In this document: positions 1 to 45,926 of the stretch, one piece after another
How positions within the stretch are numbered: the stretch's first letter is position 1
How the letters are laid out: every line of letters starts with the position of its first letter
Origin: a virus
DNA length: 45,926 nt
Direction: 5' to 3' (one strand)
IMG/VR virus record: IMGVR_UViG_3300029483_000015
Made by a program: the position numbers and the translations under genes
Notes under the pieces: generated by a model
The model's database searches: none
What the model saw: the letters and a program-made list of their open reading frames with translations, nothing else
Told to the model about the DNA's origin: nothing

Positions 1-99
1 ATCTTGAATCCTCTCACCCCGACCAGGATTCTTAAAAAGGTCGTCGCAAGACGGCCTTTTTTGTTGTGTCTAACTCTACAGGTCCCTTGCGGCTCTAGG
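1..99 (+). repeat. attL-type copy of the terminal direct repeat (identical to 45828-45926)
   Basis: Base-for-base identity by eye over all 99 nt. Contains hairpin GAATCCT-N12-AGGATTC (6-31) and a terminator hairpin (38-63). The repeat may extend beyond the window. Confidence 0.8.
38..63 (+). terminator. Rho-independent terminator inside the att repeat, probably the 3' end of the host target gene
   Basis: AGGTCGTC-GCAA-GACGGCCT stem-loop followed by TTTTTT. Confidence 0.6.
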
Positions 100-265: not shown

Positions 266-1621
266 ATGCCTAGAGTTGCAGAGAGGATGACAGAAAAGCG
301 CCTGCGGAGCCTGACGAAAGGTTGCTCCTGCGGCGTCGTTCCCGGCCTTGAGGTGCGCGTGCGCACACTGGGCGACGGGAGCACAGCAAAGTACTTTCTC
401 CTTCGGGACCGCGCGACGGGAAAGGCGTACCAGATCGGGCAATACCCGAAAGTCTCGCTCTCCGATGCTTTCAAGACTGCGGCCGAATGGCGGGAAAAAA
501 TTAAGGCGGGGATTGATCCGGTTGCGGAGAGAAAAGCGCTGCGCATGTCTCTTCAGGCTGAAGAGCCCGCGCCTGCTGTTCTAACTGTCCGGGAGATGGT
601 CTACGGGTGGATTCGGTTCAATGAGGAGCGCGGGAGATGGAAGAACGCTCGCAAGCCGAAGGAGCGCGTATGGGATGGGTACTGCAACAACCACTTCTCG
701 CCGGACTTTCTTTCGATGCCGGCGAAGGACGTGACTGCTGAGCGTCTTTACGATGAGTTGGGGGAGAAGTGGCGCACCATGATCGATACGCCGGAGAGGA
801 TTCTGAGCGATATGCGGAACGCTTTCGACTGGGCGATGCGGCAGGAGATGATTCCCATAATGATGAATCCGGCCCGTGTCGCGGGCGGGAAGCTCGGCGA
901 TATGCTGTCCCTCGCTCGTCCCGAGGGCGGGCACGAACCTGCGCTGCCGCCTAAGCGCATGCCGGCTTTCTTCGCTGAACTGATGAAGCTCGTGCCGCGC
1001 AGTCAGTCCGCGCGCTGTCTGGCCTTTGCCATTCTCACGTCAGCCCGCAATTCGACCGCCAGAGAGGCCACGTGGGACGAGATTCAGCAGGACGATGAGG
1101 GCCAATGGTTCCACGTCATCCCGCGCGAGCGGATGAAAATGAAGTCCGACAAGATTCCTTTTGACCGGAAAACGCCTCTCTGCGCTCCGGCGAAAAGTCT
1201 TCTGGATACCGCTCCGCGCTTCCCGGGCGAAGGCCGCAACTTCATCTTCCCGAACATCAATCAGGGCAACTTATTGCCCTTCTCGCTTGATGCGGTTCGC
1301 TCTCTACTGAAGAGAATGCACGACAAGCAGCGGGCGATCGACGGCATAGGTTGGGTCGATCCGGAGCAAAAGGCGAAGGACGGCAAGCCGAGAATTGTCA
1401 CCCTTCACGGTCTGGCGCGGGCCACTTTCAACACGTGGGCGAAGGACGCGAAGGGTTATGGTCACAAGTCTTTCTCCCGCGACTTGCGGGAAAGCTGTCT
1501 CGATCACCGAAACGAGAGCTATCAGTGCGCCTATGACCGCGAGCAGGCTCTGGGCGACATGAGAGAGGTTTATGACGCTTGGGGAAAATATTGTTGTTCA
1601 ATGTTGACAACAACTCCCTAA
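266..1621 (+). CDS. int: Tyrosine integrase, P4-type
   Basis: 451 aa. The N-terminus (GLEVRVRTLGDGSTAKYFLLRDRATGKAYQIG) is typical of the P4-integrase arm-binding domain. C-terminal catalytic-domain motifs (TLHGLARATFNTWA, CAYDREQAL). Adjacent to att. GGAG before the ATG. Confidence 0.9.
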   Translation: MPRVAERMTEKRLRSLTKGCSCGVVPGLEVRVRTLGDGSTAKYFLLRDRATGKAYQIGQYPKVSLSDAFKTAAEWREKIKAGIDPVAERKALRMSLQAEEPAPAVLTVREMVYGWIRFNEERGRWKNARKPKERVWDGYCNNHFSPDFLSMPAKDVTAERLYDELGEKWRTMIDTPERILSDMRNAFDWAMRQEMIPIMMNPARVAGGKLGDMLSLARPEGGHEPALPPKRMPAFFAELMKLVPRSQSARCLAFAILTSARNSTAREATWDEIQQDDEGQWFHVIPRERMKMKSDKIPFDRKTPLCAPAKSLLDTAPRFPGEGRNFIFPNINQGNLLPFSLDAVRSLLKRMHDKQRAIDGIGWVDPEQKAKDGKPRIVTLHGLARATFNTWAKDAKGYGHKSFSRDLRESCLDHRNESYQCAYDREQALGDMREVYDAWGKYCCSMLTTTP

Positions 1622-5570: not shown

Positions 5571-6455
5571 TTACGCTGCCTGATGGCTCAGCCAGTGTTT
5601 GTAGCAAGGGAGCTCCTTGACGCTGTATCCGATCTTGTCGAGAGAGGACTCAAGGTTCGGCCAGTTGAAGTCGTGAACGGCTTCCCACATGGATGCAGCG
5701 TATGGCGAATCGACGCTCCGCAGGAATTCGACGTAGCGTTCAAGGTTTGCTCGGTGGAGGTAGCGCCACGTGTAGACGAGAGAAAGAAGCTTCTCCATGA
5801 AGTCAGCTTTCACGGTGTAGACCTTCGGCGGGATCGGCTCGTCGTGATAAGTGGCAGCCTCGATGCGCTTCATCTGAGCCTTTTCATGCTCGATGCATTC
5901 TTCACGCGTCATGATTTTGACTGACTGGATGAAGGAGATTGCGGCCTCGAAGTCTTTTTCGAGAATCCGCTTGTAGCTGGGGACGTTGAAATGATTTTTC
6001 AGCGCCGAGTAAATCGTTTGATAGTTGATCCCGTAGCCTTCGGAGCGGCGGCCTACTGCTCTTTGGATTTCGCGTTGCTGTGCGTCGGTGATATATGCCG
6101 GAGCGGGAGGATTCTTCAGCGCCTGTTCCATCCGCTCGAACTCATCGTAGAAAGCACACTTGAATTCGAGCGCCTTAGCACCGGTAAAGCCCATAGCCAA
6201 TAGACAGAAGCCCTTGCGATCCATCCAGTACGCAGGAACCTTTCGAGTAGCACCCTTGTCGTTCAGACTGACTGTTTCTGAGTATCGCGCAAAATTGCGT
6301 AATACTTGAAGTTCTTGATTTTTTGCAATTAGGTCATCTACCGCGCGAACTACGTCGCTGTGCTTTTTGCCAAAGTATTCTGCAACTTTGAAGCTGGACG
6401 TAACCGCACGGCCTTCAACCACACGGAAGGCATTTTGAACAATGTTCTGAGCCAT
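5571..6455 (-). CDS. Rha-family phage regulatory protein / antirepressor
   Basis: The N-terminus (RAVTSSFKVAEYFGKKHSDVVRAVDDL ... WMDRKGFCLLAMGFTGAKALEFKCAFYDEF) matches the Phage_pRha family. The central ITDAQQREIQRAV..YKRILEKDFEAAISFI resembles the ORF6C-type antirepressor domain. Start set at the ATG at 6455, which has AAGGAG upstream. Confidence 0.8.
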   Translation of the reverse strand: MAQNIVQNAFRVVEGRAVTSSFKVAEYFGKKHSDVVRAVDDLIAKNQELQVLRNFARYSETVSLNDKGATRKVPAYWMDRKGFCLLAMGFTGAKALEFKCAFYDEFERMEQALKNPPAPAYITDAQQREIQRAVGRRSEGYGINYQTIYSALKNHFNVPSYKRILEKDFEAAISFIQSVKIMTREECIEHEKAQMKRIEAATYHDEPIPPKVYTVKADFMEKLLSLVYTWRYLHRANLERYVEFLRSVDSPYAASMWEAVHDFNWPNLESSLDKIGYSVKELPCYKHWLSHQAA

Positions 6456-6678
6456 TGTGAACTCCTTTACATATTTGATTAATCGCCCCTTTTGAGAGGG
6501 CGGCCAAGCGCTCAAAACCGTGTAAAGGCGGCGGGCATATTTCCCTTTCGGGTTTTTTATTAGCCTCACGCTCAGCCATGAGCTGAGCTATCCGCGCCCA
6601 TAGGGCTACAGATACAAAAAAATCCGCATGACTGACAGGGCGGAATCCGCTTTACAGGTGTTTTGAGCACCTGAGCGC

Positions 6679-14783: not shown

Positions 14784-15284
14784 ATGGCATCAAAACCGAA
14801 CGCCTCCAAGGGCGGAAGACCATCAACCTATACGCCGGAGCTTGCGGAGAGAATCTGTGATTTGATTCGTGAAGGCAAGTCAGAGCGTCAGATTTGCAAG
14901 ATGCCTGGCATGCCGGATGCGGTAACTCTTCGCAGATGGAAAGACACCAATCCAGAGTTTTGCACTCACTCCGCGCGCGCGCGCGAAGCAAGCGCCGAGA
15001 AGTTCAACGATGAATTGCTTGAGCTTCAAGCAAATTTGAACAATGAACTGCAGACGCGATTGCTGAACGGCGATGACTTTCCGAAGGGAACTGTTGAAGC
15101 CTTCAAGGTGCTGATGCAGGAGAAGGCTCGCCAGATTTCGTGGCGTGATGATTCGCGCTACGGCGATCGCAAGACCGTGAAGATTCAGAGCGACACGCCT
15201 GATCTTTCCACGATCGACATGGAAAAGCTCAAGGCCGCAAGAGAGTTGCTGTATGACGAGACTCCCGACACTGATCGAACTTGA
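14784..15284 (+). CDS. terS: Terminase small subunit
   Basis: GGRPSTYTPELAERICDLIREGKSERQICKMPGMPDAVTLRRWKDTNPEFCTHSARAREASAEKF is the common TerS HTH family. AAAGGAGG RBS. Overlaps the terL start. Confidence 0.8.
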   Translation: MASKPNASKGGRPSTYTPELAERICDLIREGKSERQICKMPGMPDAVTLRRWKDTNPEFCTHSARAREASAEKFNDELLELQANLNNELQTRLLNGDDFPKGTVEAFKVLMQEKARQISWRDDSRYGDRKTVKIQSDTPDLSTIDMEKLKAARELLYDETPDTDRT

Positions 15285-17637
15285 TCAGGAGATTGCGCGG
15301 CGCAGCCTGTCCGAGTTCTGCAAGATGGCATGGCACGTGCTCGAGCCTGCTACACCGATCAAGTGGGGGTGGGCGCTCGATGCAATGTGCGAGCATCTCG
15401 AGGCAGTGCATAACGGCCAGATCAAGCGCCTTCTGATGAACGTTCCGCCGGGCATGATGAAATCACTGCTCACTGGCGTCTTCTTTCCTGCTTGGGAATG
15501 GGGCGCAGGCGGAAATCCTTCTCTGCGATATCTGACAACTGCGCATAAGGAAGACCTCGCAATCCGAGACAACCTGAAGTGTCGACGCTTGATCTCCTCC
15601 GATTGGTATCAGGAGCGATGGAGCGTCGAACTGTGCGGCGACCAGAACGCAAAGAAGAAGTTCGAAAACACGGCTACTGGCTTTCGTGAGTCTATGGCTT
15701 TCCGAAGCCTCACTGGCTCTCGAGGCGACCGCATCATCATCGACGACCCGCTGAGCGTAGACGACGCCTTTTCAGAGGCCGCGCTCTCCGCTGCGGAGCA
15801 GACCTTCCTAGAGGCCGTTCCGTCCCGTGTGAACAACCAGGACTCGGCGATCATCGTCATCATGCAAAGGTTGCACGAGCGCGATACGGCCGGGATCATC
15901 CTGAGCCGCCAGCTGGGCTATGAGCACCTGATGCTCCCAATGCGCTTCGAGCCGGAGCGCCGGTGCGCGACATGCATCGGCTTCACGGACCCGCGCACTG
16001 AGGACGGAGAGCTACTCTTCCCGGAGCGCTTCTCCGAAGCGCAAGTCTCCGAGATGGAGCGAACGATGGGCTCTTTCGCGACGGCCGGCCAGCTTCAGCA
16101 GAGACCGATGCCGCGCGGCGGTGGGCTCTTCAAGTCCGACTGGATTCAGCACTGGGACAAGCTCCCGGAGCGCTTCGACGCGGCCGTTATCTCGTGGGAT
16201 ATGACTTTTAAAGAGTCCGCGACATCCGACTTCGTGGTCGGGCAGGTGTGGGGACGAAAGGACGGCGCTTTCTACCTCGTCGACCAGTTCCGGGGACGCT
16301 GGGACTTTGTGAAGTCGCTCGAGCAGTTCGTCGCGGCGGCAAACAAGTACCCGCGCGTGACTCGCAAGCTCGTGGAAGACAAAGCGAACGGGTCGGCGAT
16401 CATCGCGACGCTCAAGAAAAAAGTGTCGGGCATCATCCCGATCACGCCAAAAGAAAGCAAGGAAGCCCGAGCGAACGCAGTTACGACGCTCTGGGAGGCC
16501 CGGAACGTCTATCTGCCGCCTCCGGACCGATACCCGTGGGTGGCGCAGGACTTCATCCCTGAGCTCCTCGCATTCCCGTCTGGCGCTCACGACGACCAAT
16601 GCTTTGCGGCCGGGACTCTGATCGCCACGCCGTGGGGCGACCGCCCTATCGAAAGCCTTAAGGCCGGAGACCACGTCATCACCCCGATGGGGATTAAGCG
16701 AGTCTTGGTTGCCGGGATGACCGGCGAGGCCGAGACGATCACGAAGTACGGCATCACGGCGACAAAGGATCATCCTTTCCTAACAAGGAACGGGCGTTTC
16801 AAGGCTTTCTGTCAAGTTACGGAGAACGAATGCTTGGGGTTGACACTTCGCCAAATGACCGAGGCGAGCATCCTAATCTCGTCCAGTTCGACGGCATCAC
16901 GTATCGGCTTCTATCGAAAGGCCGGTATTACCTCAGCCAGTCAACCACGAACGAGGGGCGGAAAGGCGCGAAAGGCCTGCACGTCGCTATCTGGGAGAAA
17001 TACTCTGGGCAAAAAGTCCCTCCCGGCTGGGAGGTTCACCATAAGGACGGCAACCCGTTTAACAACGAATTCAGCAACCTTGATTGTCTATCGCGCAGCG
17101 AACACAGTAAGACGATCAATCGCAAGACTGAAAGGGTTCGCCGAAACCTTGACCGGATCAGGCCTCTCGCGTCCGCTTGGCACAGAAGTGAGGCTGGACG
17201 CGCTTGGCACAGGGAGCACGCGAAGCAACCCAAGTCCAAGCAAGAATGCAACTGCCTCTGTTGCGGGAAGCCCTTCCTCGCAAAAAGAGCTGACGCCAAG
17301 TATTGCTCTAGGAAATGCGAAGTCAAATACCGTTACGACAACGATGCGAGGCCAGAAGAACGGGCCTGCGTGGTCTGCGGAGCAAACTTCACGGCTCTCG
17401 TCGGCCCGTACCGGAAGAGAACTGCTGTCACGTGCAGTAGAAAGTGCCGGGGCATCTGGCGAGTTCGGAAGCAGGCAGCCAGTCTTCAATCTGATGATTG
17501 AGGACGCGCACTGCTTCTATGCCAACGGTCTTCTCGTTCACAACTGCGACGCGATGACCCAGGCATTGACGGATCTAAATAAGCACAGCGGCTTGCATAT
17601 CGATCCGACGAATCTAGCTTACTTACTTGGACGGTAG
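15253..17637 (+). CDS. terL: Terminase large subunit precursor containing an intein
   Basis: The 794-codon ORF has an N-terminal ATPase and a C-terminal nuclease (..AHDDQ / CDAMTQALTDL). It is interrupted by a Hint-type insert at 16600-17544. The predicted spliced product is 479 aa. Confidence 0.85.
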   Translation: MTRLPTLIELDQEIARRSLSEFCKMAWHVLEPATPIKWGWALDAMCEHLEAVHNGQIKRLLMNVPPGMMKSLLTGVFFPAWEWGAGGNPSLRYLTTAHKEDLAIRDNLKCRRLISSDWYQERWSVELCGDQNAKKKFENTATGFRESMAFRSLTGSRGDRIIIDDPLSVDDAFSEAALSAAEQTFLEAVPSRVNNQDSAIIVIMQRLHERDTAGIILSRQLGYEHLMLPMRFEPERRCATCIGFTDPRTEDGELLFPERFSEAQVSEMERTMGSFATAGQLQQRPMPRGGGLFKSDWIQHWDKLPERFDAAVISWDMTFKESATSDFVVGQVWGRKDGAFYLVDQFRGRWDFVKSLEQFVAAANKYPRVTRKLVEDKANGSAIIATLKKKVSGIIPITPKESKEARANAVTTLWEARNVYLPPPDRYPWVAQDFIPELLAFPSGAHDDQCFAAGTLIATPWGDRPIESLKAGDHVITPMGIKRVLVAGMTGEAETITKYGITATKDHPFLTRNGRFKAFCQVTENECLGLTLRQMTEASILISSSSTASRIGFYRKAGITSASQPRTRGGKARKACTSLSGRNTLGKKSLPAGRFTIRTATRLTTNSATLIVYRAANTVRRSIARLKGFAETLTGSGLSRPLGTEVRLDALGTGSTRSNPSPSKNATASVAGSPSSQKELTPSIALGNAKSNTVTTTMRGQKNGPAWSAEQTSRLSSARTGRELLSRAVESAGASGEFGSRQPVFNLMIEDAHCFYANGLLVHNCDAMTQALTDLNKHSGLHIDPTNLAYLLGR
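16600..17544 (+). other. Intein (315 codons) within terL
   Basis: Starts CFAAGTLIATPWGDRPIESLKAGDHV, has block B TKDH, and ends VFNLMIEDAHCFYANGLLVHN followed by Cys+1. Confidence 0.8.
16830..17501 (+). CDS. HNH endonuclease ORF nested in the intein in the +2 frame
   Basis: 223 aa. GLHVAIWEKYSGQKVPPGWEVHHKDGNPFNNEFSNLDCLSRSEH is an HNH_3-type motif. Two CxxC..CSRKC repeats. GGAG lies 5 nt before the ATG. Confidence 0.75.
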   Translation: MLGVDTSPNDRGEHPNLVQFDGITYRLLSKGRYYLSQSTTNEGRKGAKGLHVAIWEKYSGQKVPPGWEVHHKDGNPFNNEFSNLDCLSRSEHSKTINRKTERVRRNLDRIRPLASAWHRSEAGRAWHREHAKQPKSKQECNCLCCGKPFLAKRADAKYCSRKCEVKYRYDNDARPEERACVVCGANFTALVGPYRKRTAVTCSRKCRGIWRVRKQAASLQSDD

Positions 17638-36155: not shown

Positions 36156-36199
36156 AAAAAAGCAAACCCCGCAAGGTTCGCGGCCTTAGCGGGGTTTTT
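36156..36199 (+). terminator. Conserved terminator, family copy 1 (near-identical to 39437-39481)
   Basis: AAAAAAGCAAACCCCGC-AAGGTTCGCGGCCTTA-GCGGGGTTTTT. Confidence 0.65.
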
Positions 36200-36226: not shown

Positions 36227-36367
36227 ATGGAACCAATTTTAGAGCTAGTGAGGGCCCCCTATATGGCTCAAGAACTACCTTTCTCGATATACGTTATCGC
36301 TTATGCGGTGGCGATCTTGGTAACCGCAAAGGCGGTTAGGGCTATCAAAGAGCTTTGGAAAAAGTAA
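36227..36367 (+). CDS. Mini-ORF a: 46-aa single-TM peptide
   Basis: Hand translation: MEPILELVRAPYMAQELPFSIYVIAYAVAILVTAKAVRAIKELWKK. Followed by hairpin AACCCCAC..GCGGGGTT (36366-36400). Confidence 0.35.
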   Translation: MEPILELVRAPYMAQELPFSIYVIAYAVAILVTAKAVRAIKELWKK

Positions 36368-36424
36368 ACCCCACAGGTGTAGCGGCCTGCGGGGTTGTTT
36401 GTACCTCAACTCACCTGAGGACAT

Positions 36425-36589
36425 ATGGATATTTTACCTTCATTTGACTTGGTGAGACTTATGACGACGCCTGATCTTCCGCTCTACGGTCAGCTTTTCG
36501 CCTATGGCATCGGGCTTGCCGGAATCGGTATCGGCCTCAAACAAATAGTCGGAGCTATCTCGCAGATTCTTGAGTGGTTTCGGAAATAG
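36425..36589 (+). CDS. Mini-ORF b: 54-aa single-TM peptide
   Basis: Hand translation: MDILPSFDLVRLMTTPDLPLYGQLFAYGIGLAGIGIGLKQIVGAISQILEWFRK. The stop abuts the terminator. Confidence 0.35.
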   Translation: MDILPSFDLVRLMTTPDLPLYGQLFAYGIGLAGIGIGLKQIVGAISQILEWFRK

Positions 36590-36626
36590 CAAACCCCGCA
36601 GGGAGTGACGGTCTTGCGGGGTTTTT
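36589..36626 (+). terminator. Conserved terminator, family copy 3
   Basis: GCAAACCCCGCA-N13-TGCGGGGTTTTT. Confidence 0.6.
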
Positions 36627-36650
36627 CGTATCTGATGAAGAGGATCAGAC

Positions 36651-36806
36651 ATGAAGATTTTACTGGAGATCAATCGGGAGGTGCGGATGTTGCTGAGCGA
36701 AAAGAATCTGCCGGCTCATGGCAAGGCGGCCGCTTGGGTGCTTGTCGCTTTGGTCGCGGCTGTAGCCTTTGCCATTGTGTGCTTTGGAATTAGCTTGCTG
36801 AAATAG
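36651..36806 (+). CDS. Mini-ORF c: 51-aa single-TM peptide
   Basis: Hand translation: MKILLEINREVRMLLSEKNLPAHGKAAAWVLVALVAAVAFAIVCFGISLLK. GAAGAGGA RBS. Confidence 0.4.
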   Translation: MKILLEINREVRMLLSEKNLPAHGKAAAWVLVALVAAVAFAIVCFGISLLK

Positions 36807-39436: not shown

Positions 39437-39481
39437 AAAAAAGCAAACCCCGCAAGGTTCACGGCCTTAGCGGGGTTTTTT
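39437..39481 (+). terminator. Conserved terminator, family copy 5
   Basis: AAAAAAGCAAACCCCGCAAGGTTCACGGCCTTAGCGGGGTTTTTT. Differs from 36156-36199 by about one base. Confidence 0.65.
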
Positions 39482-39495
39482 CAAGAGGAAAAGAC

Positions 39496-40098
39496 ATGGC
39501 TGGATATTTGGATGCGTCGGGTCTCAAACATTTCAAGAGGAAAAACGACGCTACATATCTTGGCAAGCAGGAGAAGGCGGCTTCGGCGAAGGTCGCAGAC
39601 TCAGTCGTTTGGGAGAACGTTTCCGGGAGGCCGGATCTATCTGCATTAATTCCGCCCGGCACGATCATCCACTACGCCGGGCGCACGGTCCCGAGCGGCT
39701 GGCTCATCTGCAACGGCGCGAATGTGAGCCGAACCGACTACGCGGCCCTTTTCGCGGCTATCGGTACGATCTACGGTGCCGGCAACGGGTCGACAACCTT
39801 TGGCCTGCCGAATTTGAACGGTCGCTTCTTCGAAGGCACAACGTACACTGGTTCTGTCGGCACTTACTACTCAGCTGGGTTACCGAATATAAGTGGAGAA
39901 TATCAGGGTGGGGACGGTCTTAACTTGTATTCTTCCGGCGCCTTTGGATTCGTAAAAGAATCCGGTTCTCAAATAACCGGTGGCAGTTATAAGTTAGATA
40001 TTGGTGATTTCAAAGCTTCTAGAAGCTCATCTGTATTCGGCTCGTCTAGTGGAGTTCAACCCCCGTCTATGGCGCTCCTTCCATGTATCAAATTTTGA
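39496..40098 (+). CDS. Tail-collar fibre protein, the expressed locus of the shufflon (constant part plus cassette A)
   Basis: 200 aa. Collar domain PPGTIIHYAGRTVPSGWLICNGANVSRTDYAALFAAIGTIYGAGNGSTTFGLPNLNGRFFEG. Crossover motif at 39883-39896. C-terminus VQPPSMALLPCIKF. Confidence 0.8.
   Translation: MAGYLDASGLKHFKRKNDATYLGKQEKAASAKVADSVVWENVSGRPDLSALIPPGTIIHYAGRTVPSGWLICNGANVSRTDYAALFAAIGTIYGAGNGSTTFGLPNLNGRFFEGTTYTGSVGTYYSAGLPNISGEYQGGDGLNLYSSGAFGFVKESGSQITGGSYKLDIGDFKASRSSSVFGSSSGVQPPSMALLPCIKF
39883..39896 (+). repeat. Shufflon crossover site 1 (in the expressed gene)
   Basis: CCGAATATAAGTGG, encoding P-N-I-S-G. Confidence 0.6.
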
Positions 40099-40303
40099 TA
40101 CACACAAGTAACGCCATGCTTGGCGGCTGAACCGACGAAGAAGAACCGTAAATCGAAGATGATTTAGCCGCATTTATGTACATGTTGGTGCCGTTGTCCG
40201 CTCCGCCCCCAGGCCCCCTTGTAGTTTCGCTTTTGTACAAAGCTCCGGCTTCAGCAAGGCCTCCCCACGCGTAAGCCATATTGATGTTACCTGTGATATT
40301 CGG
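40088..40303 (-). other. Silent fibre-tip cassette B (71 codons, no start context)
   Basis: Minus strand reads PNITGNINMAYAWGGLAEAG...SSIYGSSSSVQPPSMALLVCIKI-stop. A stop lies 5 codons upstream of the site. Confidence 0.7.
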
Positions 40304-40322
40304 GCAGACCGAATATCACAGG
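40290..40322. repeat. Shufflon crossover sites 2 (-) and 3 (+): perfect 14-bp inverted repeat with a 5-bp spacer
   Basis: CCTGTGATATTCGG-GCAGA-CCGAATATCACAGG. Confidence 0.65.
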
Positions 40323-40560
40323 ATCATTCAATGCACGTCAATATTCAGGGCCGGAACGTTACGGACCTCTTTTAGACTGTGTTGGATTTATGTATGAATC
40401 CTCGAATGATCAAAGTTCAGGCGCCGCTATAACGTGTACTACAACCTATGGCGGCCAGCGCTATTACAAAATGTCGGCCTCAAGATCTTCGTCTACTTTT
40501 GGCTCTTCTTCAGGCGTTCAACCACCAAGCATTGCCCTGATACCTTGTATCAAAATTTGA
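40309..40560 (+). other. Silent fibre-tip cassette C (83 codons)
   Basis: Reads PNITGSFNARQYSGPERYGPLLDCVGFMYESSNDQSSGAAITCTTTYGGQRYYKMSASRSSSTFGSSSGVQPPSIALIPCIKI-stop. A stop lies 4 codons upstream. Confidence 0.7.
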
Positions 40561-40780
40561 TACAGGGGAGTAGCGCCATCGATGGAGGTTGAACGGTTGT
40601 ACTGTTGCCGAAGATTTCGTTAGCACCAGAAGCGTCTAATTCCAAACGGAAATTTGAACCATTGCTATTACCACCATAAGCTTTATCACCTACATTAACG
40701 GGCTTGAGCGCCCCATTTTGTTTATAAAGTAAGCCGTTCCAAGGCGTAGGTAATTTATTGATTTGACCCGTTATATTCGG
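40550..40780 (-). other. Silent fibre-tip cassette D (76 codons)
   Basis: Minus strand reads PNITGQINKLPTPWNGLLYKQNGALKPVNVGDKAYGGNSNGSNFRLELDASGANEIFGNSTTVQPPSMALLPCIKF-stop. TGA TGA lie immediately upstream of the site. Confidence 0.7.
40767..40780 (-). repeat. Shufflon crossover site 4
   Basis: Plus strand reads CCCGTTATATTCGG, which is CCGAATATAACGGG on the minus strand. Confidence 0.6.
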
Positions 40781-40865
40781 TCATCAAAAGCACGTTTCTA
40801 GACCTGCGTTTTATAGCTGTAGAACATAGGGCTAGGCACATGCTTCTCGATCGATTAGATCGGCT

Positions 40866-42029
40866 CTAGTGCTTTGCAGGATCAAGGATCTCGTCGACTA
40901 GACAGGCTTTTCGGGCACAGTCCTCGATGAAAGCGCTCCAACGCGTCATTACAGGCGTCCTTGCGGCCAAGTAGTCACTGCGCTGATATGCGCGCGATAC
41001 GGCTGTTCCTGAGACGTGCGAAAGGCACGCTTCTGCGACCTCAAAGGGCGTTTCGTGGTCAGCGAGCCATGAACGCGCGATTGAGCGCAGACCGTGCGCT
41101 ACAAGCTTTCCGGAAAGGTCTGTTGAGTGCAGATGCTTCGCTAGAGCTTGCGCGCTGACGTGCTTACCAGTCTGCTTGGCTGCAAAGATGAAATCTGAGC
41201 GCGGGTGCGGAGAGAGCCTCTGTTCTGCGTTAATGAGCGTTTGCATGAAAGCCGTGATCGGCACGCGATGAGCGCGACCTTTTTTCATCTCGACAGCTGG
41301 GATCGTGAGCACGTCCGCCTCGATCCACGACTTGCGAAGCTTTGCGTTTTCGCCTGGTCGAAGCATCGAGCAGAGTGAGAAAAGAAAGAGCACGCGCATG
41401 CGTGCGGGAGCGTCCTTCATCGTCTCCATGACGAGCGGGAGTTCGCGCCACGGCGGTGCCGGCATAGGTTTAACGATGGGCGCCGCAAAGACGCGGCTTA
41501 CTCGATCGATAGGGTTGTGCTGGATGTATCCGGCGCAGACAGCTAAATCCATGATCTCTCGCGTTCGCATTAGAACCCGCTTGAGTGTGGCTTGATGGCC
41601 TTCGGCTTCGATGTGCCGGACGGTGGCAATGACAAGAGGAGCGGTGATCTCATCGAGCTGACGGCGACCGAGGGGGGAGATGACATAACGCTCAAGGCGG
41701 CGCTTTTCGTCCATGTAGGAGGTGATTCTGCCGCGCTTGAGATTGCACCACAGGCGGAAGGCGTCTGAAAGGACGTATCCACGGGGCGGCTCCTGCCCCA
41801 ACTCCTTCCGCTTTCTGCGGGCCAGTTGCCGGGCCTGCATCAGAGAGACCTCGGGCCATCGTCCGAGGCTCAGATCAGTAACACTGCCTCCGTAGGAAAT
41901 GCGGAGACACCAACTTTTGACCCCCGAGGGGTGAACCCGAAGGGTGAGGCCGTGGCCATCGGTCACGGTGTATCGCTTTTCACGCGGTCGCAAGGCCGCA
42001 ATTTTTCTTGTAGAGAGGTTTTTCGACAT
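40866..42029 (-). CDS. Second tyrosine recombinase (candidate shufflon invertase)
   Basis: 387 aa from the ATG at 42029. P4-integrase-like N-terminus (LRPREKRYTVTDGHGLTLRVHPSGVKSWCLR). Catalytic motifs LRPGE, VAHGLRSIARSW, CLSHV and RAYQRSDY. Lies 85 bp from cassette D. Confidence 0.85.
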   Translation of the reverse strand: MSKNLSTRKIAALRPREKRYTVTDGHGLTLRVHPSGVKSWCLRISYGGSVTDLSLGRWPEVSLMQARQLARRKRKELGQEPPRGYVLSDAFRLWCNLKRGRITSYMDEKRRLERYVISPLGRRQLDEITAPLVIATVRHIEAEGHQATLKRVLMRTREIMDLAVCAGYIQHNPIDRVSRVFAAPIVKPMPAPPWRELPLVMETMKDAPARMRVLFLFSLCSMLRPGENAKLRKSWIEADVLTIPAVEMKKGRAHRVPITAFMQTLINAEQRLSPHPRSDFIFAAKQTGKHVSAQALAKHLHSTDLSGKLVAHGLRSIARSWLADHETPFEVAEACLSHVSGTAVSRAYQRSDYLAARTPVMTRWSAFIEDCARKACLVDEILDPAKH

Positions 42030-42798
42030 GAAGCCCAATGAGATCAAAGAAATCCCGCACGTCGATGAGGACGGCTACTTTGATGGCATGGTGACCTGCA
42101 TGGCCGACGCGAAGGGCTCGCTGATGCTCGGCGCGGACTGCTATGACATCGCCGCCCCCGAAGACGATGGGAAGCACTTTTTCAAGCTGTCTGCCGACAA
42201 AAATGGCTGGGTGGCGGAAGCTATTCCGCAAACAGTCGAGGAATGCGTCGGCATCGTGCTCGATCATCACAAACAGACGGAAAGAATTCACAAACTCCGC
42301 ACGGCTTTCGATGAGCTCACGAAGAACTCGACGACCTATCGCCTGGTCCAAGACCCGGAAACGAATGCCCGCTCGATCGAAAAGATTCCGGAACAGACTG
42401 TTGAGGAAGCGCGCTCCGAGAAGATGCGGGCCCTCGACTCTGCCTTTACGTCTTGGTATGAGGACGGCGCGACACTAAAGTCTTCTCTGGGCTTCGAAGC
42501 CGACTCGGACTCCCGCGCCATGCAGGACGTGAACGGCCTAGTCACGGCGGAGGAATCTTCGGCCGCCTTCGTGGACACGGAGAGCGGGGGCGGTCTGATC
42601 TTCATGGACGCCAACAACGTTGGGCATCAAGTCAGTATTGACCAGCTCAAGACTCTGCAGCTCGAAATTATTCAGGCTGGACAGGCAGCCTATCAGGAAA
42701 AGTGGAAGTTGCGCGACGCGATTGAAAAGGCGAAGACGAAAGAGGAGCTGGAAAAGATCGTCATCGCCTTCCATCCGGTTGACTTCTCGACGAAGTGA
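42028..42798 (+). CDS. Tail fibre assembly / chaperone-like protein (DUF4376-like C-terminus)
   Basis: 256 aa from the ATG at 42028. The C-terminal FMDANNVGHQVSIDQLKTLQLEIIQAGQAAYQEKWKLRDAIEKAKTKEELEKI fits the fibre-assembly family pattern. Confidence 0.55.
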   Translation: MKPNEIKEIPHVDEDGYFDGMVTCMADAKGSLMLGADCYDIAAPEDDGKHFFKLSADKNGWVAEAIPQTVEECVGIVLDHHKQTERIHKLRTAFDELTKNSTTYRLVQDPETNARSIEKIPEQTVEEARSEKMRALDSAFTSWYEDGATLKSSLGFEADSDSRAMQDVNGLVTAEESSAAFVDTESGGGLIFMDANNVGHQVSIDQLKTLQLEIIQAGQAAYQEKWKLRDAIEKAKTKEELEKIVIAFHPVDFSTK

Positions 42799-42980
42799 TG
42801 TGGCGCTATCTGAAGCAGGTGCTCATCGCCTTTGATCAGCTCTTGAAGCTCCCCCGTTTAAAAACGGAGGATTCACTATGACACTCTCAAGGCTTTTTCA
42901 GGGGGCAATGCCGCCTGAACGTTGATGGGCTCGTCATTGCCGTCATTATTGCGGCGTGGCTGATCGGCAAGAGGCGTTAA
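42798..42980 (+). pseudogene. Small TM-protein ORF interrupted in frame by repeat copy 2
   Basis: MWRYLKQVLIAFDQLL.. runs into the element and meets TGA. Downstream, the same frame continues ..NVDGLVIAVIIAAWLIGKRR-stop. ATG overlaps the upstream stop (TGATG). Confidence 0.3.
42843..42922 (+). repeat. 80-bp repeat element, copy 2
   Basis: Differs from copy 1 by a few substitutions and one small indel. Confidence 0.7.
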
Positions 42981-43036
42981 GCCGCAGGGATCGTTCTTCT
43001 TCGGGAGTTCGGCCCCTCTTGCTATCTGTCTGCTCA

Positions 43037-43062
43037 GGCCCGCCAATGCGCGGGCTTTTTTT
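43037..43062 (+). terminator. Rho-independent terminator
   Basis: GCCCGC-CAAT..GCGGGC followed by TTTTTTT. Confidence 0.6.
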
Positions 43063-43620
43063 ATGGGTGAATTGATGCTCTATGTGAAATGGATATGTCT
43101 GTTACCGCTGAGCTTCGTCATGGCGGTCGTTGGGAGGCTGCTCGCGCCGATCCTGCCGTTCTTCGCGAAGTCAGACGGCTATCTGCCCTCGTGGCTTTCG
43201 TGGTTTCAGACGCCTGACAACCCTCTTGATGGCGACAAAGGCCATTGGGAGCGCTGGCCGGGTACCTCGGCGTGGGCCACCTACAGACGACGGGTTGCGT
43301 GGCTTCTCCGGAACGTCTGCTACGGCTTCGATATCTCGGTGCTCGGGCAGAAGACTAAGCCGGGAGACTGGCTCGACATGGACGGGCAGGAAGGCGTGTC
43401 CGATCAGCCTTACGGAAAGTCCGGCTACTGGCTTAAGCGCGTCTATCGCGGCGAAAAGCTGGCCTGCTGGCACCTCTATGTCATCCGGCAGTGGAGCTTA
43501 CTGCCGTCGAAGTGCCTGCGCATTTCAATGGGATGGAAGCTCTTCAGCTTTGACGGCTTGAAAGAGGAGACGCATCAGCTCACCTGCTATTGCAACCCTT
43601 TAAAAACTTTCAAACAGTAA
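43063..43620 (+). CDS. Membrane-anchored hypothetical protein (moron position before lysis genes)
   Basis: 185 aa. N-terminal TM segment, then LPSWLSWFQTPDNPLDGDKGHWERW, a motif I recall from a conserved phage family of unknown function. Confidence 0.55.
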   Translation: MGELMLYVKWICLLPLSFVMAVVGRLLAPILPFFAKSDGYLPSWLSWFQTPDNPLDGDKGHWERWPGTSAWATYRRRVAWLLRNVCYGFDISVLGQKTKPGDWLDMDGQEGVSDQPYGKSGYWLKRVYRGEKLACWHLYVIRQWSLLPSKCLRISMGWKLFSFDGLKEETHQLTCYCNPLKTFKQ

Positions 43621-43630
43621 GGAGGTCGTT

Positions 43631-43855
43631 ATGACTAAGGAAGGAGTTCTCGCCAAGCTCAAGGAGCTCGGTCTCGACGTGAACGGCGCAACGGAAGAAG
43701 TGATCCAGAAGGCGCAGGCGTGGCTTGAAGACCAGAAGGCTCAGCTCGACACCGAGACGCGCCGCAAGGTGCGCGCTTTCTGGATCGGCGTCACTGCCGT
43801 GGGCATTGTCCTCGGCATCGCTGCAGGCTGGTTCGGGCGCTCCATGATCGGGTGA
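43631..43855 (+). CDS. Tail-anchored small membrane protein (possible holin partner)
   Basis: 74 aa with a C-terminal TM segment (FWIGVTAVGIVLGIAAGWF). AAGGAGG RBS. Confidence 0.5.
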   Translation: MTKEGVLAKLKELGLDVNGATEEVIQKAQAWLEDQKAQLDTETRRKVRAFWIGVTAVGIVLGIAAGWFGRSMIG

Positions 43856-43859
43856 CGCC

Positions 43860-44357
43860 ATGCACTCGCTTCTACCGGTAGGGGCGGAGGCGGCGTGGAT
43901 AAAGATAGGTGCGGTATTGGGGGTGATCTGGGGGGCGACTCTTGAGAGTGTTGCCCCCTTGGTCTATTGGTATCTGGCCTTCATGGCGGCCGACCTTCTC
44001 ACCGGGATATGGGCCGCCTGCCGGACCGGGACTTTCAGCTCAAAGCGCCTTAGCTTTGGGATGGCGAAGAAGGGACTTGCCTTTTTCATCATCACGCTTG
44101 CGCACGGGATCGACGTGAGCTTCTGGTTCGTGCTCCACGACATGCCACTTTTTCAAAGCGTGACGCTCTGCGCCTATGCCTGCGGCGAATTCGGCTCGAT
44201 CGTCGAAAACATCGAGCGGGCGGGTTTCGGAGATGCACTGCCTCCAGTCCTCAAGAAACTTTTCTTGTCGCTTGAGAAGCGCCTTGAGAATGCCGTGGAC
44301 TCCAAGCTCGATCAGATCGGGCTTGATGATGAGGAGAAAGACAAGAAGACCAAATAG
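43860..44357 (+). CDS. Holin (phage_holin_4_1-like)
   Basis: 165 aa with multiple TM segments. Motifs AADLLTGIWAA..SSKRLSFGMAKKG and GEFGSIVENIERAG fit this holin family. Confidence 0.7.
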   Translation: MHSLLPVGAEAAWIKIGAVLGVIWGATLESVAPLVYWYLAFMAADLLTGIWAACRTGTFSSKRLSFGMAKKGLAFFIITLAHGIDVSFWFVLHDMPLFQSVTLCAYACGEFGSIVENIERAGFGDALPPVLKKLFLSLEKRLENAVDSKLDQIGLDDEEKDKKTK

Positions 44358-44393
44358 CAAAAGCCGCTCGGGAGCGAACCGGGCGGCTTTTTT
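44357..44393 (+). terminator. Terminator, lysis-region family copy 1
   Basis: GCAAAAGCCGCTCGGGAGCGAACCGGGCGGCTTTTTT. Confidence 0.6.
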
Positions 44394-44431
44394 GTTCTTT
44401 ACGAACATGAATTAGCAAGAGGATTGTACCA

Positions 44432-44647
44432 ATGAACACTGAAGAGCGCATAGCTCGCCTGGAAGGTTTTATGAACAAGTTTGAGGAAGAGCGTATTCGA
44501 AGTGAAGAGCGAACTCGCATAGAAATCGAACTTGCGGAGGCGCGACTAAAGAAGATGCGTCGCATGTGGGAGTTCTTCAAGGTAGTACTGAGCCCGATCA
44601 TTGCCGCCGTTGTGACGGCAATAGTCATGCAGTACATACAAAAATGA
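44432..44647 (+). CDS. Tail-anchored coiled-coil membrane protein
   Basis: 71 aa with a C-terminal TM segment (VVLSPIIAAVVTAIVMQYI). Confidence 0.5.
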   Translation: MNTEERIARLEGFMNKFEEERIRSEERTRIEIELAEARLKKMRRMWEFFKVVLSPIIAAVVTAIVMQYIQK

Positions 44648-44659
44648 AAATCAGAATAC

Positions 44660-44696
44660 GCAAAAGCCGCTCGGAGGCGAACCGGGCGGCTTTTTT
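44660..44696 (+). terminator. Terminator, lysis-region family copy 2
   Basis: GCAAAAGCCGCTCGGAGGCGAACCGGGCGGCTTTTTT. Nearly identical to copy 1. Confidence 0.6.
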
Positions 44697-44719
44697 ATAG
44701 GCAATTGTTTCGAGGGCCT

Positions 44720-44884
44720 ATGGGAGACATTTTAAATGCTTTGAAGATCGGAGAGCTCATGACTGCAGATGATTTGACATGGCAGGCGACGGCCATCCTG
44801 GTCGTCCTCATCGCTTTCGGTGTTGCCGTCGTCGCGTGCGTCGCCGGGAAGGCCGTGAAGATTTGGCGTGATGCTCTGAAGTGA
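44720..44884 (+). CDS. Small single-TM protein (54 aa)
   Basis: Hand translation: MGDILNALKIGELMTADDLTWQATAILVVLIAFGVAVVACVAGKAVKIWRDALK. Confidence 0.4.
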   Translation: MGDILNALKIGELMTADDLTWQATAILVVLIAFGVAVVACVAGKAVKIWRDALK

Positions 44885-44890
44885 GGGACT

Positions 44891-45304
44891 ATGACCGCTC
44901 GAGGAATTCGGAACAACAACCCGGGGAATCTCCGGCACGGGGAAGACTGGCTCGGACTTGCTCCGGTGCAGGATGATCAGAATTTCTGCACATTTACAGA
45001 AATGCACTTTGGTGTGAGGGCGCTCCTGAAAACCCTTCGCACCTACGTAGAGAAGCGAGGATGCGACACCGTGAGCAAAATCATCACCCGATGGGCTCCG
45101 GAAAATGAAAACGATACGGCCTCATATGTGCTTCATGTCGCGACGGCCTGCCGCCGTGATCCCGATGAAGGTCTGAACTTCGAGGCCGACCCGCTCCTCT
45201 ATCTGGACATCGCGAAGGCGATCGCCCGACATGAGTGCGGCGTCGATGCTGAAGCGATCACGGATGATGCGTGGGAAGTGGGCCTCAAGGAGGCCGGGCT
45301 GTGA
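44891..45304 (+). CDS. Putative endolysin (RNNNPGN-motif peptidoglycan hydrolase family)
   Basis: 137 aa. GIRNNNPGNLRHGEDWLGL...FGVRALLKTLRTY...ITRWAPENENDT. Lies between the holin and spanins. Confidence 0.55.
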   Translation: MTARGIRNNNPGNLRHGEDWLGLAPVQDDQNFCTFTEMHFGVRALLKTLRTYVEKRGCDTVSKIITRWAPENENDTASYVLHVATACRRDPDEGLNFEADPLLYLDIAKAIARHECGVDAEAITDDAWEVGLKEAGL

Positions 45305-45711
45305 CCTATCTGAAGATCGCGGGCGCACTGCTTGCGGTGCTTCTGGCTTTCGGAGGCGGCTATCGCTATGCCGCCGCGCTTTACGAAAAGGACGCGGCGG
45401 AGCTTCGGGAAGCCGAGGCCGTTGCCCGTGCCGATATGGGGAGGAAGCAATATGCGAAGATGGTTGAAGCGCTGGACGCTCTTGCCGGCCTGCGCGGTGA
45501 GCTTGCCGATGCTCGCGCTGATGCTGAACGGGTGCGCCGCGCCGCCGAGGTACGTGAGCGAAGAGCCAGCGCCTCTGCCTGCGGTGCTGAGCGAGCCGCA
45601 GTCTCCGCGTGCGAAGGACTTCTCAGAGAAAGTGTCGGACTTCTCGCGGAGGGTCGAGGACTACTTCAGGAAACAGCCGGAGTTCACGACGCCGCAATAG
45701 GGGTGAAGTAG
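45301..45711 (+). CDS. Rz: Inner-membrane spanin (Rz-like)
   Basis: 136 aa from the GTG at 45301. N-terminal TM segment (IAGALLAVLLAFGGGY), then a charged coiled-coil region. Confidence 0.7.
   Translation: MTYLKIAGALLAVLLAFGGGYRYAAALYEKDAAELREAEAVARADMGRKQYAKMVEALDALAGLRGELADARADAERVRRAAEVRERRASASACGAERAAVSACEGLLRESVGLLAEGRGLLQETAGVHDAAIGVK
45452..45700 (+). CDS. Rz1: Outer-membrane lipoprotein spanin (Rz1-like) embedded in Rz
   Basis: 82 aa in the +1 frame. Lipobox LALMLNGC. Pro-rich. GGAGGAAG RBS. Confidence 0.7.
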   Translation: MRRWLKRWTLLPACAVSLPMLALMLNGCAAPPRYVSEEPAPLPAVLSEPQSPRAKDFSEKVSDFSRRVEDYFRKQPEFTTPQ

Positions 45712-45827: not shown

Positions 45828-45926
45828 ATCTTGAATCCTCTCACCCCGACCAGGATTCTTAAAAAGGTCGTCGCAAGACGGCCTTTTTTGTTGTGTCTAA
45901 CTCTACAGGTCCCTTGCGGCTCTAGG
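45828..45926 (+). repeat. attR-type copy of the terminal direct repeat
   Basis: Identical to 1-99. Confidence 0.8.

Follow-up and report, generated by a model that had tools for sequence, protein, structure and literature searches.

A putative tail-fibre shufflon next to a P4-type tyrosine recombinase in temperate myophages of Sutterellaceae

The window analysed here is the whole of the IMG/VR record IMGVR_UViG_3300029483_000015 (45,926 nt), a complete circular temperate myophage of ~45.8 kb, and we focus on a locus near its right end in which a small tail-fibre gene, an array of alternative 3' ends for that gene and the gene for a tyrosine recombinase, which we call Rec, lie next to each other. 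We consider it likely, with a probability of about 0.8, that this locus works as a shufflon, in which multiple inversions swap the receptor-binding head of a small fibre resembling T4 gp12. Four sites in alternating orientation (+, -, +, -) each head an open segment of 71-83 codons behind a single constant 5' part, and comparison of assemblies showed that these segments are reordered and reoriented in genomes that are otherwise identical. The hosts of these phages are Sutterellaceae, namely Sutterella wadsworthensis, Sutterella sp. and Duodenibacillus.

The fibre gene, its alternative tips and their head sites

The fibre gene (39496-40098, plus strand) encodes a protein of 200 aa with a Pfam Collar domain (PF07484, E 2e-24, residues 55-111). 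Its constant part of 129 codons (39496..39882, plus strand) comprises an N-terminal attachment region and a collar domain of the T4 gp12 type, and the expressed tip, cassette A, makes up the remaining 71 codons and the stop (39883..40098, plus strand). A profile of 81 fibre homologues matched structures of short and long fibres that include T4 gp12 (8KEC, 1OCY, 1PDI and 5IV5) over residues 42-151, and the P-N-I-S/T-G peptide of the fibre aligned with P-N-V-N-G of gp12 (1OCY), just past the collar. Because the switch point aligns there, the swapped part appears to be the distal head domain. An AlphaFold2 model of the fibre from the 81-sequence alignment was unusable (mean pLDDT 37, pTM 0.20), and a promoter scan around the locus returned nothing above chance. 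There is also a 14-nt exact direct repeat, TTTCAAGAGGAAAA, with one copy across the ribosome-binding region of the fibre gene (39479-39492) and the other at codons 12-16 (39531-39544), and such a repeat is unlikely to occur by chance in 1.5 kb.

Behind the expressed gene lie three silent cassettes. Cassette B (40088..40303, minus strand) has 71 codons and a stop and reads PNITGN...VQPPSMALLVCIKI, cassette C (40309..40560, plus strand) has 83 codons and a stop and reads PNITGS...VQPPSIALIPCIKI, and cassette D (40550..40780, minus strand) has 76 codons and a stop and reads PNITGQ...VQPPSMALLPCIKF. None of them has a promoter or a usable start at its head, and all are closed by upstream stops within 0-4 codons, these being 4 codons away for B and C and a pair of stops directly upstream for D. 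A and B are convergent, as are C and D, and in each pair the 3' ends share 11 nt, tail to tail. All tips end in VQPPS(M/I)AL(L/I)(P/V)CIK(F/I) and a stop, and inverted repeats of 40-110 nt (75% identity) result from their conserved 3' ends.

Each tip begins with a copy of a short site with the consensus CCGAAYATMASNGG. Site 1 (39883..39896, plus strand; CCGAATATAAGTGG) lies inside the expressed gene and encodes P-N-I-S-G, and sites 2 (40290-40303, minus strand), 3 (40309-40322, plus strand) and 4 (40767-40780, minus strand) are at the heads of cassettes B, C and D, respectively. The motif CCGAATATMA has four matches in the 45.9 kb, all at tip heads, where 0.06 would be expected, and none of 100 shuffles reached four. 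Sites 2 and 3 are perfect inverted copies of each other over 14 bp, with a 5-bp spacer, GCAGA (40304..40308), between them, and in relatives this head-to-head spacer is 1, 2 or 5 bp long and is not conserved. An earlier note on this DNA, made from its letters and open reading frames, had described the fibre gene with three promoterless and start-less alternative 3' ends, closed upstream, open for 71-83 codons and sharing an end peptide, as well as the four head sites and the inverted repeat of sites 2 and 3, and our translations and motif counts confirm this description.

To examine constraint on the site, we compared 55 cassette families from all loci with the codon baseline of the genome. 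At position 3, the proline codon is CCG in 53 of the 55 families, compared with a baseline of 53% of proline codons (P ~1e-12). Position 9, the third base of the isoleucine codon, is A or C in 54 families, and ATT occurs in 0/55 against a baseline of 27%. Position 10 is A in 54 of the 55 although the residue varies among T, S and R, and positions 13-14 are GG. The bases upstream of position 1 are not conserved across the families, and the flanks switch partner exactly within positions 1-10. As synonymous positions are conserved and the upstream flanks are not, the site is constrained as DNA and is asymmetric, and the claim in the earlier note that conservation is confined to one side of the core holds across the 55 families, this being the cassette side. 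Position 9 (A/C) is also the sole variable base across six 213-nt copies of one cassette, which fits a base in or beside the region of strand exchange.

A further observation concerns an assembly of Sutterella wadsworthensis (L039:6089-6394, plus strand; L numbers denote the retrieved loci), in which the silent cassette D nearest to Rec is longer by 75 bp, a copy of sequence that ends the constant region. This insert begins at a site-like sequence of the collar, CCGAATATGG (LPNMGGRF), which hints that this pseudo-site may have been used as a crossover point.

Cassette orders among related phages

We mapped cassettes in 33 viral contigs that were retrieved through Rec, and further loci were found through the fibre and through the head-to-head site pattern. 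Read from the Rec side, the window has the order D+ C- B+ A-, with A expressed, and L027, whose Rec is 99.7% identical, has the order C+ D- B+ A-. The two are related by a 476-bp inversion with 99.6% identity and flanks that are collinear at 99.1-99.4%. The sites at 40309-40322 and 40767-40780 mark the ends of this inversion, and the alignments overlap only in 26-nt imperfect repeats containing sites 3 and 4. The lysogens L103 and L105, with a fibre protein identical to that of the window, have the C/D pair inverted in the same way as L027 (A B D C), in L101, L102 and L104 the expressed tip of the window is followed by arrays of 6 or 8 cassettes, and other close relatives (L001-L004 and L009) carry other combinations of cassettes.

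One prophage was recovered from six samples (L041-L046) at the same chromosomal site (secA ... zapD, coaE) and with an identical Rec protein, and it has the orders 6+7-8+9-, 6+7-9+8-, 8+9-7+6- and 9+8-6+7-, such that each of its four cassettes is the expressed one somewhere. Between L041 and L045, the left flank of 11.1 kb is 100% identical, as are the permuted cassettes themselves. All four orders can be interconverted by inversions at head sites alone, and the tail-to-tail pairs are kept, as the mechanism predicts. The earlier note had proposed the logic of a shufflon, in which B or D would take one inversion and C would take two, and it had suggested that related prophages be compared for permuted cassette orders. 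Such permutations do exist, both as inversions at the predicted sites in L027, L103 and L105 and as the four orders of L041-L046.

The silent cassettes are also found in use. We surveyed the tips of the 120 best full-length fibre homologues, and on the shared junction we found A in 18, B in 1, C in 1 and D, the commonest expressed tip, in 45, together with ~20 other families. Cassette C is expressed in a fibre of 212 aa and B stands at the end of one full-length fibre. B occurs at 98.6-100% identity at other positions in L001 and L027, L002 and L027 have C at 100% identity in the opposite position and orientation, and in L005 and L021 the constant part to which D is fused has 99% identity, such a fusion of D being present in L001, L002 and L009 as well. 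Because all four tips occur joined to the constant part in homologues, the silent cassettes are live alternatives rather than decayed copies. Over all loci examined, at least 55 cassette families occur on this one scaffold, which amounts to a natural library of tips.

Some relatives have loci that depart from this layout. Three independent contigs (L031:4055-4800, L032:2710-3452 and L033:6001-6833) share a deletion that removes Rec from about codon 76 onward and reaches the middle of a cassette, leaving one complete tip and a fragment, and they may be described as a naturally “locked” lineage. The loss of Rec after codon ~76 in these loci indicates that Rec is dispensable for the phage. Rec has a premature stop in L008 (3950-5083) and a frameshift in L019 (6001-7153), each with an intact array, and these lesions may be sequencing errors or recent inactivations. 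A distant relative (L073:4560-10624, with Rec at 50% identity) has the same gene order with ~3 kb of cassettes, at least eight of them silent, cassette ends of the form ...TV(R/Q)P..L..Y.LIRY and a common site core of only CCGAATA.

The recombinase and competing explanations

Rec (40866..42029, minus strand) is a tyrosine recombinase of 387 aa with the P4/CP4-57 architecture of arm-binding, central and catalytic domains (Pfam Arm-DNA-bind_3, 4.7e-16; Phage_int_M, 5.4e-14; Phage_integrase, 2.8e-14). Its N-terminal domain matches PDB 3JTZ, a CP4-like integrase fragment, and against NCBIfam PRK09692 it reaches 180 bits, where the cut-off is 434. The residues R224, K249, H312, R315, H338 and Y348 are invariant across nine homologues, in agreement with the intact motifs that the earlier note had ascribed to a recombinase 85 bp past cassette D, and the arm-binding domain is retained in homologues at 77% and 50% identity. 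Rec homologues at 50-100% identity adjoin the array in every contig with enough flank, whether the contig was retrieved through Rec, the fibre or the site pattern, and no array without Rec was found among the loci retrieved through Rec, the fibre or the head-to-head pattern. Two loci with distant fibres and no cassettes (L068 and L069) have no Rec nearby. From this invariant linkage, we think it probable that Rec is the invertase of the shufflon.

In the mechanism that we propose, a site-specific recombinase would carry out strand exchange between two sites of opposite orientation, within their first ~10 bp, and thereby invert the DNA between them. A single inversion would install B or D behind the constant part, and C would take two. 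The conserved last ~25 residues (...VQPPSxALLPCIK[FI]) would allow every chimera to fit the remainder of the fibre. The enzyme would most likely be Rec, a homologue of P4-family tyrosine integrases recruited for inversion, and a separate enzyme, Int, would integrate the phage at attP.

Int, a second intact tyrosine recombinase that the earlier note missed, is encoded at 266..1621 on the plus strand (451 aa; Arm-DNA-bind_3 and Phage_int_M). Its residues R261, H381, R385, H414 and Y423 are conserved in homologues, with the variant HG(L/C/I)AR in box II. From 45001 through the end and on to ~37, the window is collinear at 98-99% with the right ends of prophages located by the host gene coaE (L101, L102, L104 and L041), and as homology with integrated prophages continues through the lysis genes and stops at ~37, where host DNA by coaE starts, we place the attP region at 1..37. 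Int lies ~230 bp from this mapped junction of phage and host, and Rec lies 4.9 kb inside the right junction of the prophage in lysogens. The variant L103 has its insertion beside greA, and its homology runs as far as 45693. In L023 and L025, tRNA-Ser is adjoined by a second integrase that is distantly related to Rec (26-27% identity by tblastn), and Rec itself is located 3.7 kb further inward. Rec is therefore not found at the boundary of the element, beside an att site, where the gene of a P4-type integrase is expected, and Int is the probable phage integrase. We also considered positions 5-25 of the window as the 3' fragment of a tRNA gene and dropped this candidate, as there was no ARAGORN tRNA, no Rfam tRNA match and none in the fetched loci.

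Several points weigh against a Rec-driven shufflon that switches host range. Rec has all the domains of an ordinary integrase, the annotated proteins closest to it are integrases of prophages and islands (31-34% identity), and we know of no arm-domain integrase that acts as an invertase. No pattern of covariation between Rec lineage and position 6 of the site (T/C) was found among the loci compared. All inversions were deduced from differences between assemblies and not from within one culture. A swap of tips would probably change which bacteria the phage can attach to. The tail-to-tail partner of D varies among related phages (C, B, 3 or 12). As inversion at head sites cannot produce such changes of partner, a second process must act as well, for example homologous exchange in the conserved 3' ends, which must then take place on a longer time-scale; one cassette type does have a mosaic 3' block. 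Finally, L002 matches L027 except that it lacks precisely the stretch from one site to another in direct orientation. This deletion-like product indicates that the system is not strictly inversion-only, and site-specific deletion or insertion probably also happens, as one might expect of an integrase-type enzyme.

The cassettes might instead invert at the same sites through an enzyme acting in trans, such as a host invertase or Int, with Rec being a second integrase or an excision-type enzyme for an unrelated att site that happens to lie nearby. Trans-acting invertases do exist, Mpi of Bacteroides being an example (PMC6109161), and the integrase-like domains and relatives of Rec and the missing covariation with the site would suit this explanation. 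Nevertheless, we regard it as improbable. Rec adjoins the array in all contigs that could be assessed, which span 50-100% identity and include two phage backbones that are unrelated, and it is never at a prophage boundary, while attP adjoins Int and bears no resemblance to CCGAATATMA in positions 1-37 of the window. Moreover, the lineages without Rec (L031-L033) have also lost their silent cassettes. The phage itself offers no serine recombinase for the task, as the earlier note had held: a Pfam scan of 81 six-frame open reading frames of at least 130 aa found no member of the Resolvase/Recombinase families (PF00239 and PF07508), tblastn of the window with Hin and gamma-delta resolvase gave no match, and the YxRVSTxxQ motif of serine recombinases was not found in the window.

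Far less plausible, in our view, is that the cassettes are paralogous leftovers whose orders arise by RecA-type homologous recombination between their conserved ends. The inverted repeats at the 3' ends described above would offer substrates for it, and the mosaic 3' block and the changing tail-to-tail partners are the kind of trace that it would leave. Yet all recent breakpoints fall in the 10-17-bp head sites and not in the longer 3' repeats, and homologous recombination works poorly on sites of this length. The constraint at synonymous positions of the site, the intact and protein-identical state of the cassettes across samples, and the systematic lack of starts and presence of upstream stops in the silent copies also argue against it. 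That the different orders are errors made by assemblers at short inverted repeats can be practically dismissed: many contigs do end within or beside the array or Rec (L018, L020, L021, L030, L053, L067 and L076-L079), but such breaks are expected from heterogeneity within a sample, the identical repeats (10-17 bp) are far below the k-mer length of assemblers, the same alternative orders recur across independent samples and assemblers, and each arrangement has a complete in-frame fibre gene.

We also entertain, as a more tentative extension of the Rec-driven shufflon, that an arm-domain integrase of the P4 family has been domesticated into a multi-site invertase within a portable host-range module that moves between unrelated myophage tails, and that it may in addition excise and integrate cassettes in an integron-like manner. 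The number of cassettes is 2, 4, 6 or 8 among phages whose Rec is 97-100% identical, and integron-like excision and integration would explain both the range of 2-8 cassettes and the precise deletion in L002.

Known inversion systems and the setting of the locus

The closest precedent is Rin, a predicted tyrosine invertase on a shufflon of phage receptor-binding-protein genes that was described in prophages of Bifidobacterium breve and B. longum by Mavrich et al. 2018 (PMC6109161) and also occurs in Eggerthella lenta prophages (PMC8778435). The Sutterella system is therefore not the first phage shufflon with a tyrosine recombinase, and the novelty implied by the earlier note, which did not include this published precedent, was overstated. 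The two systems share a phage tyrosine recombinase gene flanking alternative C-terminal receptor-binding cassettes, a short asymmetric repeat at the head of each cassette, permuted cassette orders (for Rin, among prophages and virions) and a separate canonical integrase elsewhere in the phage. They differ in the enzyme, as Rin is armless and XerD-like, whereas Rec, compared by description, has an arm-binding N-terminus and a P4-type central domain, and in the site, which on inspection is an 11-bp TTCCCTAACCC for Rin and CCGAAYATMASNGG here. Rin is found in Actinobacteria with siphophage receptor-binding proteins of the TP901-1 type, while the present system belongs to myophages of Sutterellaceae with a collar fibre of the gp12 type, and convergent overlapping cassette pairs with a conserved C-terminal peptide are a feature of the Sutterella system. 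What is new relative to Rin is thus the Gram-negative myophage hosts, the gp12-like collar fibre, the convergent cassette pairs, and a P4-type recombinase with an arm-binding domain that is unrelated to Rci. Our literature search found no description of this Sutterella system.

The earlier note had also likened the locus to the Rci shufflon of IncI plasmids, and this likeness stands for the functional logic and fails for kinship of the enzymes. As in R64 (NC_005014; Rci was taken at L100:27006-28157), a tyrosine recombinase gene lies by an array with multiple inversions, the sites are in coding sequence at the boundary of constant and variable parts with one side conserved, and the choice is among alternative C-termini of an adhesin. 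Beyond the catalytic core, however, Rec is no relative of Rci (BLASTP, 27% over 59 aa, E 0.037), and Rci has the catalytic Pfam domain only, without an arm domain or Phage_int_M. The R64 system acts on pilV through 19-bp sfx sites rather than on a Collar-domain phage fibre through CCGAAYATMASNGG, and at least one deletion-type product, L002, is seen here.

The switches of Gin (Mu), Cin (P1), Pin (e14) and Min (p15B) likewise swap a C-terminal host-range part behind a constant N-terminus by inversion, and Min, with its six-site shufflon, also makes multiple inversions. In those systems, a serine recombinase lies beside the invertible DNA, in contrast to this phage, which has none. Here, there is also no tail-fibre assembly gene inside the invertible segments, and the cassettes are much smaller, at about 215-250 bp. 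The site of serine invertases is a 26-bp imperfect palindrome, and the site here is asymmetric. With integrases of the P4/CP4-57 type, Rec shares its domain architecture and the R-K-H-R-H-Y catalytic residues, but it is internal to the prophage with another integrase at attP, and its identity to annotated integrases is at most 34%. A shufflon with a PilV/tail-collar fusion has been reported in Pectobacterium brasiliense by Milman et al. 2023 (PMC9881135), whose systematic screen showed an enrichment of tail-fibre genes among inversion targets and of integrases and DUF2612 proteins among the neighbours of targets. That case shares with ours a programmed inversion and a target with the PF07484 tail-collar domain and, compared by description, it differs in being a pilus locus with a PilV N-terminus and no phage fibre.

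The window is closed by a 99-bp repeat at its ends (1-99 = 45828-45926, 100% identity), and this exact terminal repeat indicates a circularly closed assembly. Its tail genes are of the E217/Pam3 type, and it encodes a DUF2612 baseplate protein. Among GenBank phages there are no close relatives, as DNA matches are confined to the collar domain and Rec matches are at most 33% identical. Nevertheless, the stretch at 39652-45383, from the collar domain to the lysis genes, recurs at 90-98% in L039, a prophage with a Mu-like tail, and the constant part of the fibre gene from 39652 onward is 96-97% identical to that of this otherwise unrelated prophage. The module of fibre collar, cassettes, Rec, DUF4376 gene and lysis genes is therefore present in two unrelated tail backbones, E217/Pam3-like and Mu-like, and the recurrence of this block in L039 suggests that it travels as a unit. 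The DUF4376 gene (42028..42798, plus strand; Pfam DUF4376, 1.6e-8) is divergent from Rec, with overlapping start codons, and our guess is that its product has a role in fibre assembly. The order of DUF4376, Rec, cassettes and fibre is conserved over Rec identities from 50% to 100%.

If this reading is correct, Sutterella prophages, which are common in the human gut, would gain a fast and reversible change of adsorption specificity, and this switching would be relevant to phage-host dynamics and to the reading of gut viromes. It also matters for annotation, as contigs break at the array and fibre genes differ between otherwise identical phages. An arm-domain integrase homologue that inverts DNA between asymmetric sites of ~14 bp would represent a new solution to directionality among tyrosine recombinases and a clear case of an integrase recruited to a new role. 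The compactness of the system, with sites of at most 14 bp and cassettes of ~220 bp, makes it attractive for synthetic combinatorial switches, and the 55 or more tip families on one scaffold provide material with which to retarget phages or tailocins.

A spacer of 85 bp (40781..40865) separates the array from the Rec stop codon, supplies the stops that close cassette D and measures 73-112 bp in relatives. It contains an inverted-repeat element, CTAGCCC...GGGCTAG in one lineage and GGGGCTTG...CAAGCCCC in another. RNAalifold found 3 pairs only, on a poor alignment of the two lineages, and the element could be a conserved hairpin or an accessory site.

Other parts of the window also contained features of note. 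The large subunit of the terminase (15253-17637, plus strand; 794 aa) has an apparent intein: the group of open reading frames that holds it matched Hint_2 (3e-8) and HNH_3 (1.7e-13) in addition to Terminase_6C, and its translation, ...AHDDQ|CFAAGTLIATP...LLVHN|CDAMTQ..., has typical intein boundaries. In the early region, a full-length match to the Rfam family sRNA-Xcc1 (RF02221) at 6494-6577 on the minus strand scored 70.6 bits against a gathering score of 53, and it overlaps the start of a gene for a Rha-family regulator (5571-6569). Between the baseplate and fibre genes (36227-36806, plus strand) lie three small open reading frames of 46, 54 and 51 aa in tandem, each with a hydrophobic segment, each trailed by a hairpin and none assigned to a family. 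A G+C-rich hairpin, AAGCAAACCCCGCAAGGTTC.CGGCCTTAGCGGGGTTTTT, which is terminator-like on both strands, occurs at 36162-36193 and at 39443-39464, so that one copy precedes this cluster of small genes and the other precedes the fibre gene of the shufflon.

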